In this document: in pieces, positions 41,108 to 45,549 of the stretch | Layout of the letters: each line of letters starts with the position of its first letter | Position numbering within the stretch: position 1 is the first letter of the stretch | The notes under the pieces: generated by a model | What the model saw: only the letters and a program-made list of their open reading frames with translations | Told to the model about the DNA's origin: nothing | Databases searched by the model: none | DNA from: Isurus oxyrinchus | Lineage: Eukaryota | NCBI GenBank assembly: GCA_026770705.1 | Contig: JANJGN010000071.1 | Coordinates: forward strand, 62,001 to 126,000 | DNA: 64,000 nucleotides | Reading direction: 5' to 3' | Position numbers and translations under genes: made by a program

Positions 41108-41476
41108 CAGAAACGTGAAGCCGGGTTACAGGGTAATAGTTATGGCTCGGACCATTGTCAAATTCTATTCTGAAAAAATAAGGTCCTGCATCTTCCCGTG
41201 TGATATTGTTTATAATCAGGGAACAGTCGCCATCTTTCAGGTCTCCAGACAGCCGGGTCCGATGGTGGTACCGTGGTAACTCGTGACTGTGATTCTTGGA
41301 GTGAAAGGCTATGGGAGCCCAGGAAATCTGTTTCTCATTATTAAACCAGACTCCACCTCGCGGTTGGTTTTCCAGACACGATGGATAACTGTAGTGACAT
41401 GGAATCTGTACACACGAACCTTCCTGCGCTGTCACCTCTCGTGGAGTGTCACCTTTCCACTCTTGTGAGGGTTCAG
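41108..41476 (-). CDS. Gene 3 proximal V-set exon
   Basis: 369 nt, AG/GT, open frame. EGSCVQIPC..DCSLIINNITREDAGPYFFRIE, with the conserved F-strand Arg. Confidence 0.9.
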
Positions 41477-41534
41477 CTGGGGAGAGAAATCTCAATATTT
41501 ATCTCTGAATGGTTTGTGGATCCACTGAACCCGA

Positions 41535-42362
41535 TATTTACAGATGAGGCTGAATTGGGGGGATGGTCAATACTGAGGAGAATGGCAACAAATTATTTTG
41601 GCAGGAAGAATAGAAAAACAGAATATTATTTAAATGGAGAGAGGCTGCAGAATGCAGTACAGAGGGATCTGGGTGTCCTTGTACATGAATCACAGAAAGT
41701 CAGCATTTAGGAACACCACGGAATGAGGAAGGCAAGTGGAATGTTGGCCTTTATTGCAAAGGGTTGGAGTATAAAAGGAGGGAAGTCTTGCAACAGCTGC
41801 ACAGGGTGAGATTGTATCAGGAGCAGTGTGTACAGTTCTGGTCTCCTTACTTAGGGAGGGATAGACTTGCATTGGAGGCAGTTCAGAGGAGGTGCACTGG
41901 GCTGATTCCTGGGATTAAAGGGTTTGTCCTGTGAGGAAATGTTGAGCAGGTTGGGCCTGTATCCATTGGAGTTTAGAAGAATGAGGGGTGAGCTTATTGA
42001 AACATATCCGATTCCGAGGGGGCTTGACAGGGTGGATGCTGGGAGGATGTTTCCCCCTCGTGGGGGAATCTAGAACCAGGGAGCACAGTTTCGGAATGAG
42101 GGCTCCCCCATTTAAGACTGAGATGAGGAGGAATTTCCTCTCTCAGAGGGACGCTAGCCTGTGGAATTCTCTTCCCCAGAGAGCAGTGGAGGCTGGGCCA
42201 TTGAATAGACTCAAGGCTGAGTGAGGCAGGTTTTTGATCGACAAGGGAGTCAAGGGTTTGGGGGACAGGCAGGAGAATGGAGTTAAGGCCACAACCAGAT
42301 CAGTGAGAGCAGGCTTGAGGGGCCGAATGGCCTGCTCCTGTCCCTATTTCTTATGTTCCTAC
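41535..42362 (+). mobile_element. CR1 LINE 3' fragment between the two V exons
   Basis: YYLNGERLQNAVQRDLGVLV..SLWNSLPQRAVEA and CR1 tail. Confidence 0.85.
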
Positions 42363-42899
42363 ATTCTTACCTTCTAAATATATTAAAGCTGCAGAATAAA
42401 CATGCAAGTGACTGACCCGCTCGACCCACCTTCCATCTGGGGGTCCCATGGGGAGGACCCTTCCTGAGCCAGATCCACCAGCCAACATGGTCTGGATCCG
42501 AGCACAGGAGACACGGGGGGGAGTGACTAACAGGCTCCTTGTGACAGGCCCCGTCTGTCCAATGGCTGGCTTTCAGCTGCCAAGGCCAGAGTGGTCCTTG
42601 CTAAAACCGGCTCAGGACAGGCCAGGACCCCTGTGCAGACCCCCTCCAGCGCTGCAGCCTCTGTACAAACCCCTCATGCGCTTGTGGAGAGACACAAACA
42701 AGGCTGCGCATTACCGAGGAGAATCCCCTCTACGGACTAAGGGGCTGACTCATCACCTTAAAGTCAGCAAATGAGGAGGCTCTCGCTCGGTATCGGGGCT
42801 TGGCATTCGCTCAATTAAAATAATCAAATGACATTTTGGTCAGAAATCTAAGGAGGTTGTATATTCCCTCAAAAATAAGACTCAAGCTGGGGTCTAGGG

Positions 42900-44945
42900 T
42901 CAAAGGGCAACAACTTATATTTACACAACAACTTTAACATGACAAATCACCCCAAGGTGCTACACAGGAGCGTCATAAAACAAAGTATGTCACCCAGACA
43001 CATGTGGCGATATTAGCGACAGCTGGCCAGAAGAGGTCGGTGTTATGGAGAGACAGAGAGAAAGAGACAGAGAGAGAGAGAGAGAGAGAGAGGGAGCGGT
43101 TTCGGGTGGGAATTCCAGAGCTTAGGTTCCCAGGGAACTGAAGGCACGGCCGGTAATTTTGGAGCGATAGCATCCGGTGATGGTCAAGAGTCTGGAATTG
43201 GAGGAGCGCAGTGATCTCGGGGGGTTGTAGGTGCTGTAGTTTGTACAGAGGCTGTAGAGAGGCTACAAATTAGGAAAATTTGGAGAGGCTGTAGGAGGTT
43301 ACAGAGCTAGGGAGAGTTGTAGAGTATGCAGGTGGTTACAGAGATAGGGAGGGTTGTAGGGGCAGGATGGGGTTACAGAGATACGGAAGGTTGTAGGGGC
43401 TGGAGGAGCTTACAGTGAAAGGGGGGGCAGTGTAGGGACTGGTGGAGGTTACAGGGTAAGGCAGGCTTTAGGGGCCTGAGTAGGTTACAGAGACAGGGGG
43501 TTTGGAGGGACTGGAGAAATTTATAGTAAAAGGGAGGCTTTAGGGGCAAAAGATAGTTACAGAGATAGAGAGGGTGGACGGGAATGGGAAATGTTATGGA
43601 GATAGGGGGTTTGTAGGTACAGGATGGGGTTATAGGGACTGGATGAGGTTACAGAGATAGAGAGTGCTGTAGGGACTGGAGGAGGTTACAGAGATAGAGA
43701 GTGCTGTAGGGACTGGAGGATGTTACAGAGATAGGGGTTGTTGCAGCGGTTGGTGAAGGTTACAGAGAAATGGACCGTTGTTGGAGCTGGAAGAGGTTTA
43801 TGAGGTAGTGGTGGTTATAGGGACTGAAATAATTTACAGAGATTGGGAGTGTTGTAGGGGCTGGAGGAGGTTACAGAGATAAGAATGGTTGTAGGTACTG
43901 GAGGAGGACGAGGAGATTACAGGGATAGAGAGGAAACAAAGATGAAAATTTGGATATTGCGACTTTGCTTGACCAGGAGCCAGTCTCGGTCATCGAGCAG
44001 AGCGGGTGATAAGGGAATGGGACTTGGTGTGAGTAAGGACGTGGTCAGCAGTTTTGGATGGCCTCAAGTTTATGGAGTGTAGAGCGTGTGTTGGAACAGT
44101 CGAGTCTGGAGGTAATGAAGGTGTGGATGAGGGTTTCAGCAGCAGATGAGCTGAGACCGGTTGAAGTCGTGCGATGTTACGGAGGTGGAAATAGACGGTG
44201 TTAGTGAGGGCGCAGATATGAGGCCGGAAGCTCATCTCAGGATCAAATGGGACAACAAAGCTGTGAACAGATTGGCTTCAATCTCAGAGAGCTGCCAGGG
44301 AGAGGAATGGAGTTGGTAGCGAGGGAACAGAGTTTGGAGCGGGGAATGAAGACAATGGCTTCAGTCTTTCCAATATTTAATTGGAGGGAATTTCTGCCCA
44401 TCCAGTACTGGATGTTGGATAAGCAGCCTGATAATTTAGCAGCAGTGGAGGAGTCGAGAGAGGTGGTGGTGAGGTAGAGCTGGGGATCCTCAGTGGACAG
44501 GTGAAAACTAACACTGTTCAGATGATGCTGCAAAGCCATTGCAAGTGATTCTCTGGCTACGATGAGATGGATAAGAATGGAGCCAGGGGAGAGCAGTCCC
44601 ACCCAGCTGGACGACAGTGGAGAGGTGTTGGAGGAGGATGGTGTGGTCGATCGTGTCAAAGGCTGCAGACAGATCGAGAAGGACGAGGAGGGAAAGTTGA
44701 CCTTTGTCACAGTCACACAGGATGCCATTTGTGACCTTGATAAGAGCTGTTTCAGCACAGTGGCTGGGGTGGGAACCTGATTGGAGGGATTCAAACATGG
44801 AGTTCCGGGAAAGATGGGAACGGATTCGGGAGATGGAAACAGGTTGCAGGACTTTGTAGGGGAACGAGAGGCTGGAGATGGGACGGGGGTTTACACGGAC
44901 AGTGTGAGGGGTGGAAGGTGTAGTGGGGAGGAGACACTTCACTCA
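42900..44945 (-). mobile_element. L2 LINE fragment (RT region to 3' end)
   Basis: LLVLLDLSAAFDTIDH, LQLNIGKTE and YFHLRNIARL on the minus strand. Confidence 0.85.
43215..43930 (-). repeat. Degenerate 37-bp minisatellite embedded in L2 sequence
   Basis: GGAGGTTACAGAGATAGG units, flanked on both sides by L2-like sequence. Confidence 0.8.
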
Positions 44946-45162
44946 GGGGGGAGGTGTCATCACCCCTCAGCTTGGTTTACGTTACAGCTATGATGTGGAT
45001 TCAATCACACACAATAAGCTCATGGATCTGGGAGTAGAAATAGACAAATCATTAAAAATAGTGACGCTGGTTAACACGGCCAAAAAACAAGCAAATCAAA
45101 CACTATTATTTCCCGTTGAGTGTTGGATGTGAATTGTTGAGTAATTATAACACAGCACTTAC

Positions 45163-45549
45163 CAGAAACGTGAAGCTGGGTGTCAGGATAGTTGCTGTAA
45201 CTATTGTTGCCGTCAAATTCTATTCTGAAATAATAATAACCTGCATCTCCCCATGTGATGTTGTTTATAATCAGGGAACAGTCGCCATCTTTCAGGTCTC
45301 CAGACAGCCGGGTCCGATGGTGGAACCGTGTTAACTCGCGATTGTGATTCTTGGAGTGAAAGGCTATGATCCCTCTAGACCTTGTATTCCATGTATTCCA
45401 TGTGTACCATTTCACGTACCAGATTCCGACACGTGCTCTCCCGACTAAACGTGCTGGATAACTGTAATTACATGGAATCTGTACACACGAACCTTCCTGC
45501 GCTGTCACCTCTCGTGGAGTGTCACCTTTCCACTCTTGTGACAATCCAA
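45163..45549 (-). CDS. Gene 3 distal V-set exon
   Basis: 387 nt, AG/GT, open frame. EGSCVQIPC..DAGYYYFRIE, with the conserved Arg. Confidence 0.88.

Follow-up and report, generated by a model that had tools for sequence, protein, structure and literature searches.

The window analyzed here, a stretch of 64,000 nucleotides from Isurus oxyrinchus (C71:62001-126000 of the 4.98-Gb genome; coordinates without a contig name are window positions), carries on its minus strand a gene in which two V-set exons precede one full C2-set exon. A 5' UTR exon that ends at 53052 is followed by an exon with a predicted acceptor at 52641/52642 and a coding part (52562-52601; 13 codons plus one base, phase 1) that encodes the leader, or signal peptide, which was found by eye in a duplicated segment and was not picked up by a plain hydrophobicity scan. 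The RNA joint at 53052/52643 falls no more than 2 nt from the predicted acceptor; a second 5' UTR exon considered at 52675-52763 was rejected, since its intron would measure 33 nt and the RNA joint bypasses it. The outer V-set exon, Vd (45163-45549, 387 nt), and the inner one, Vp (41108-41476, 369 nt), are both of phase 1-1 and are separated by a 3686-bp GT-AG intron (41477-45162). The C2-set exon (40083-40379) is connected in RNA to the V side at 41108/40379 and, at 40083/38492, to the exon that holds the transmembrane segment and the stop codon (38353-38492); a further C2 exon at 39605-39757, reduced to half its length and frameshifted, is a remnant that is absent from the C2-to-transmembrane joint. 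The UTR-to-leader-exon, V-to-C2 and C2-to-transmembrane joints are all present in runs X1, X5 and X7, which represent three studies; the runs consist of assembled contigs that are presumed to be RNA, X1 and a further run, X3, come from one sample, and runs X2, X6 and X8-X20, whose word shares were small, do not enter the analysis. All five coding exons are intact, every splice site is AG/GT, and leader, Vd, Vp, C2 and transmembrane exons together read through 410 amino acids without an internal stop.

The preliminary description of this DNA had reported two open V exons of phase 1-1, and this is borne out in detail: both have lengths that are multiples of 3, no stops, a pyrimidine-rich AG acceptor and a GTAAGT donor. 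It was also right that each exon starts like the tail of a leader (VGLSQEW in Vd, AEPSQEW in Vp), has an N-terminal cysteine (codons 45485-45487 and 41412-41414) and keeps the arginine associated with sialic-acid binding, in YYFR of Vd and YFFR of Vp, which align with the YFFR of Siglec-7 and Siglec-5 and also with CD33. The C-C' loop of Vd is long and rich in Trp, Tyr and Arg. Exon mapping of the cluster found no leader exon between Vd and Vp. A V-J-like recombination mechanism was considered and set aside, since each V is encoded by a whole exon that has splice sites of its own.

Pfam places V-set and Ig_CD22 on both V exons and C2-set_2 on the C2 exon, and the nearest solved structures are those of Siglec-7, Siglec-5, MAG and CD33. 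The layout is that of a type I membrane Siglec, with an N-terminal V-set domain ahead of a C2-set domain and with leader and transmembrane exons in frame, and the residues of the Siglec cysteine pattern (an intra-sheet pair in V and an inter-domain V-C2 pair) are present in alignment with CD33, their bonds being predicted. On its CD33-related or MAG-like domain order, F-strand arginine and cysteine pattern, the predicted product qualifies as a member of the Siglec family, for which sialic-acid binding is predicted. Within the hydrophobic stretch of the transmembrane exon lies an Arg (38446-38448), and the short tail has no Tyr; a charged transmembrane residue without an inhibitory motif is what marks the activating member of paired receptors, and both features are consistent with an activating receptor.

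The first reading of the sequence overlooked a fourth cysteine in Vp, which lies in the BC loop (codon 41376-41378), 7 residues past the B-strand cysteine, at a place where Vd has none. The C2 exon carries its own BC-loop, inter-domain cysteine at the B-strand cysteine +6 (40294-40296), aligned with the second cysteine of CD33 domain 2. In CD33, as stated in a part of PMC6669322, C36 of the V domain bonds to C169 of the C2 domain, and C36 without its C169 partner is a free cysteine that forms disulfide oligomers. By this measure Vp resembles a domain 2 that would serve Vd. The gene has one full C2 exon, but Vp itself offers a domain-2-like cysteine, and the earlier argument, in which a lone domain 2 is available to receive the N-terminal cysteine of just one V, does not stand for this reason.

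That argument had been used to propose that Vd and Vp are mutually exclusive cassettes, from which one gene would make two single-V receptors. The two exons share phase, leader-tail-like start, N-terminal cysteine and arginine, as such cassettes might; but a tandem product would have ten ectodomain cysteines and leader-Vd-C2 six, whereas leader-Vp-C2 would have seven, an odd number with one left unpaired. Double inclusion, moreover, is in frame, the introns are GT-AG and the V exons lie 3.7 kb apart. None of the usual blocks to double inclusion (a frameshift, a too-short intron, mixed spliceosomes or docker-selector pairing) was seen at the Vd/Vp locus; inverted repeats in 40000-52700 are short and 70-95% complementary, and a simple scan found no docker-selector pattern beside the exons. 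We consider mutually exclusive use very unlikely.

The gene belongs to a very large cluster of Siglec-like genes. Exons were mapped on the window and on 120 overlapping tiles (C71:62001-1266000), and this 1.2 Mb holds matches to 65 V, 44 C2, 52 leader, 22 Arg-transmembrane and 36 ITIM-type tail exons. They form 46 leader-led genes, of which 30 have one V, 13 have two and three have three; 16 of the 46 are intact through leader, V and C2 with a tail seen, and many others are broken. Genome searches gave 1063 first-look candidates for Vd and 1192 for the C2 exon, figures that are not copy numbers; in each search 150 were scored, and the scored matches are spread over more than 15 contigs. Among the 30 best other matches to Vd, 29 lie in loci of the same composition (a Vd without the extra cysteine, a Vp that bears it, and C2), and at 29 of the 30 the 3686-bp intron is covered to at least 99%, its longest piece being 88-99% identical. 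Similarity between the two V exons of the window does stop about 60 bp into each flank, as had been described (blastn of 41051-41537 against 45106-45610, 81.7%), but the conclusion drawn from this, a local exon duplication, has to be given up: because the intron between them is conserved across Vd-type loci, the Vd-Vp pair was copied together with the gene. These counts also bear on whether one of the two V exons is an orphan duplicate that is never used. In a cluster with so many broken genes the suspicion is natural, but it is extremely improbable here, where all five coding exons of the gene are intact and where 29 of 30 Vd-type exons are open in the matched stretch and 29 of 30 stand in the same layout.

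Across C71 the extra cysteine goes with position: it is found in all 19 V exons that come after a V and in 4 of 44 that come after a leader, as counted on the 63 of 65 V matches that are readable, the other two being fragments. Fisher's test gives p 1.4e-12 for gene copies that are not independent of one another. Among 48 intact V exons on C71 the cysteine column is the one best associated with position, and the rule holds within the 36 short-loop V exons (16/16 later against 2/20 first), where first and later exons have C-C' and F-G loop types in common. Of the four exceptions, two are V exons that are broken and whose genes lack a start codon, a third belongs to a gene with no tail in view, and the fourth (leader C71:420172) appears intact; a truncated single-V gene at C71:365599 is among those with the cysteine. 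Contig C150 (27 tiles) was taken after the rule had been fixed, and it has the cysteine in 11 of 11 after-V exons against 0 of 8 after-leader exons, 20 of its 21 V exons being readable, with one other V lacking the cysteine and some genes that may be close copies of those on C71; one locus there has six V exons, the outer of which are broken. An intact-looking single-V gene with the BC-loop cysteine demonstrates that a cysteine-bearing V can come first, a point in favor of mutually exclusive cassettes, but over both contigs the cysteine is missing from 48 of the 52 readable V exons that adjoin a leader, which tells against such cassettes. At the position of the cysteine most first V exons have what is taken as the natural residue, His.

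When a tree is built from the stretch of the exon that lies behind the cysteine, later V exons do not separate from single ones (9 changes against 13.7 when shuffled), in a topology that is poorly resolved, with 8 of 41 branches starred and the starred branches forcing 3 of the 9 changes; the nearest neighbor behind the cysteine is a single-V exon for 5 of 16 later V exons. The cysteine thus follows position, while the remainder of the exon appears to be exchanged, with the caveat of linkage to an unconverted 5' part. The extra cysteine might alternatively serve as a covalent link between two receptors in a dimer, or be a neutral leftover from a single ancient duplication. A free cysteine in the V domain of CD33 does make inter-molecule disulfides (PMC6669322, in part), the cysteine codons of intact V exons are all TGT, which is compatible with a single origin, and a structure model described below did not settle the V-V geometry. 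The cysteine nevertheless tracks position behind another V and not receptor type, occurring in Arg-transmembrane and in ITIM-tailed genes alike; it is conserved from sharks to rays; and a dimer link would leave the outer V with a stranded N-terminal cysteine, a residue that all 12 intact first V exons of multi-V genes retain. We judge a dimer link or a relic unlikely on these grounds.

The start of the exon is a second feature that varies with position: of 18 later V exons 10 begin with xEPS and the other 8 with GLS, and 0 of 42 first V exons have an xEPS start. With the Vp exon alone as target, the RNA contigs contain joins of a V-exon end to an xEPS-type start, in three contigs of X1 (agreement 1) and in one of X3, and X3 also joins a V end to a GLS-type start at a depth of 84; these V-to-V joins come from a single sample and span 11 letters on their shorter side, against a bridging standard of 31 letters, and with many paralogues they speak for the family, as the copy is not assignable. 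Leader joins, among the matches listed from X1, X3, X5 and X7, are at GLS-type starts only, with no leader-xEPS join, and this and the V-to-V joins are further points against exclusive use; leader-to-inner-V joins could occur for later V exons that start with GLS. On a 15.4-kb target, where repeats swamped the analysis, no V-to-V joint was among the 15 listed of 973 joints. We infer that this particular copy is likewise spliced in tandem, for which the cysteine counts on the two contigs give strong, if indirect, support. The Siglec-12-like V-V-C2 arrangement, which the preliminary description had offered as its other option, is thus supported by the position-specific cysteine and by V-to-V joins in RNA contigs.

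A variant of the tandem arrangement would have the inner V skipped in some transcripts, giving leader-Vd-C2 and hence receptors of two lengths that share their outer head. The short form is in frame at 287 amino acids with an even six cysteines, the C2 cysteine could pair with the N-terminal cysteine of Vd, and a V-skipping isoform is known for CD33 (PMC8615218, in part). Among the matches listed, in contigs that cannot measure skipping, no Vd-to-C2 joint was identified, and the sole V-to-C2 piece, from X7, continues for 158 nt in an exon that resembles Vp, differing at 3 positions. Skipping of this kind seems to us rather doubtful.

Beyond this genome, proteins of the window reach 95% in their matches to white-shark models and 93% in those to basking-shark models. 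In 108 homologous shark and ray gene models (Carcharodon, Cetorhinus, Scyliorhinus, Mustelus, Chiloscyllium, Hemiscyllium, Rhincodon, Pristiophorus, Mobula and Hypanus among them), which are automatic and some of which may fuse genes, the BC-loop cysteine is present in 38 of 49 after-V domains, 4 of 94 first V domains and 0 of 11 others. Eleven of the 49 after-V domains depart from the rule; V2 and V4 of two ray proteins have a cysteine in the C-C' region instead, and one exception, P0001, probably represents fused genes. Among 133 further representatives, drawn from the best 150 of 410 matches to a profile at 1e-30, 10 have adjacent V domains (snub-nosed monkey Siglec-12, a lynx, a turtle, five frogs and two teleosts), and none of these 10 tandem-V proteins of other vertebrates has the BC-loop cysteine. 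A tandem V therefore does not need this cysteine. A search of the open-access literature found no paper on this cluster or its cysteine, although one may exist elsewhere; passages of PMC13358205 do not mention sharks, and those of PMC8455134 mention Siglecs once in passing.

We thus consider it probable, with good confidence, that the gene encodes an activating Siglec of the form leader-V-V-C2-transmembrane, with both V domains in tandem and a predicted V-to-V disulfide. Vd and Vp would be spliced into one receptor, the BC-loop cysteine of Vp would bond the N-terminal cysteine of Vd, and this predicted bond would repeat, one domain further outward, the bond that normally links domains 1 and 2 of Siglecs; signaling would pass through an ITAM adaptor by way of the transmembrane Arg. 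An AlphaFold2 model of a white-shark V-V-C2 protein (P0017, 15-row alignment) has a mean pLDDT of 70 and a pTM of 0.48, with the V-V linker below 50, and its Foldseek matches to CD33 and MAG (about 215 columns, rmsd 3.6-6 A) confirm the Siglec fold without addressing V-V geometry. Multi-V heads occur on Arg-transmembrane and on ITIM-type ends, four intact double-V paralogues having the latter, which is the pattern of paired receptors. Mean identity is 91% among intact later V exons and 86% among intact single V exons, with the arginine in 16/16 and 20/20, against 76% among intact first V exons of multi-V genes, which retain it in 7/12 and mostly have long C-C' loops with aromatic and basic residues. 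Since the outer V is variable, with its arginine frequently lost, while the inner V is uniform and keeps it, differences in specificity would lie mainly in the outer V. As a tentative and somewhat speculative extension, the added cysteine may have made the shark and ray Siglec V domain stackable, such that a cluster of hundreds of paired genes, activating and inhibitory, could build rigid stacks in which 1 to 6 V domains follow one another, with sialic acid read by the uniform inner V and other, possibly microbial, ligands by the diverse outer V, in what would be two-input receptors. A single residue that marks domain position also offers a cheap test of Ig-domain chaining and of sialic-acid binding by the inner V.

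Several known systems invite comparison. Dscam- and protocadherin-type alternative arrays consist of tandem homologous exons of equal phase, as here; unlike them, the shark V exons have position-specific features and, at the family level, join each other in RNA, and their variety comes from many genes and not from cassettes. The CD33-related Siglecs and MAG give the best sequence and fold matches and share the N-terminal cysteine, the B-E cysteine pair, the F-strand arginine and the domain-2 BC-loop cysteine, but they have one V only, and their BC-loop cysteine is restricted to the C2 domain 2. Siglecs 14, 15 and 16 pair with DAP12 through a Lys, whereas the charged transmembrane residue here is an Arg, the type found in FcR-gamma-coupled receptors. 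They resemble the shark gene in having a charged transmembrane residue, no ITIM and inhibitory siblings with near-identical heads, and a part of PMC8615218 describes their pairing, as activating Siglecs, with DAP12. The tandem-V models of frogs, turtle, teleosts and lynx likewise have adjacent V domains and, as noted, differ in lacking the BC-loop cysteine; in a Bufo protein (P0208) the two outer V domains instead lack the N-terminal cysteine. In domain order the shark gene resembles primate Siglec-12, or human Siglec-XII, which has two V-set domains in tandem before C2 and, in the part of PMC6829431 that treats it, is the exception among Siglecs otherwise described as having one V, with neither of its V domains retaining the arginine. 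Loss of the outer-V arginine is common in the shark cluster too (5/12 intact first V exons of multi-V genes), but this copy keeps the arginine in both V domains and ends in an Arg-transmembrane segment, not in ITIMs, and the second V of Rhinopithecus Siglec-12 (P0192) lacks the BC-loop cysteine. The shark tandem V and mammalian Siglec-12 are likely to be of independent origin. Siglec-12 is, furthermore, one gene, while multi-V genes make up a third of this very large shark cluster (16/46 in 1.2 Mb with two or three V, and one locus with six), and the "Siglec-12" labels that automatic pipelines give to shark models conceal a separate design.

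Along 1.2 Mb of the contig from which the window is drawn (C71:62001-1266000), the exon map contains 46 leader-led genes, and 16 of the 46 are intact, in the sense that leader, V and C2 exons are all undamaged and a tail was seen. Matches to the gene family are spread over more than 15 contigs among the matches listed, which suggests that the genome carries several hundred such genes in total, a figure that may include haplotype duplication.

Head-to-head with the main gene lies an inverted paralogue with one V exon (window 58865-63480, plus strand), in which the leader-V-C2-Arg-TM layout is otherwise present and stop codons interrupt both the leader and the V exon; broken single-V genes resembling it occur repeatedly along the contig. 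The end part of an inhibitory sibling gene (window 230-11577, plus strand) consists of seven complete, near-identical C2 exons in tandem, together with fragments, and a tail exon with the motifs ILYANI and TEYTQI. A divergent V-like segment at window 20470-20800 (plus strand; 29% to the outer V-set exon, Vd) terminates in a stop codon ahead of the sialic-acid Arg position. Since segments of this type recur 14 times in the 1.2 Mb, mostly between gene groups, it belongs to the duplicated unit. Within the main gene, half of a C2 exon (window 39605-39757, minus strand) precedes the Arg-TM exon, and such remnants are found ahead of most Arg-TM exons on the map. In run X4, a set of assembled contigs guessed to be RNA, the half exon and the TM exon are joined in one contig (record 9), and some paralogues may therefore use the half exon.

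At C71:229334-234627, four leader exons stand in tandem, about 1.76 kb apart, ahead of a single V exon. A six-V locus on a second contig (G000:C150:951597-964823) has a single leader and a single C2 exon; the outermost two of its V exons are broken, and all five later ones carry the extra BC-loop Cys. Two ray proteins (P0010 and P0014) each have four V domains of alternating types, with the BC-loop Cys in V3, and with V2 and V4 lacking it and having instead a Cys after the C-strand Trp. In a Bufo protein with three V domains (P0208), the N-terminal Cys is missing from both outer domains, which is an alternative route to avoiding a free Cys.
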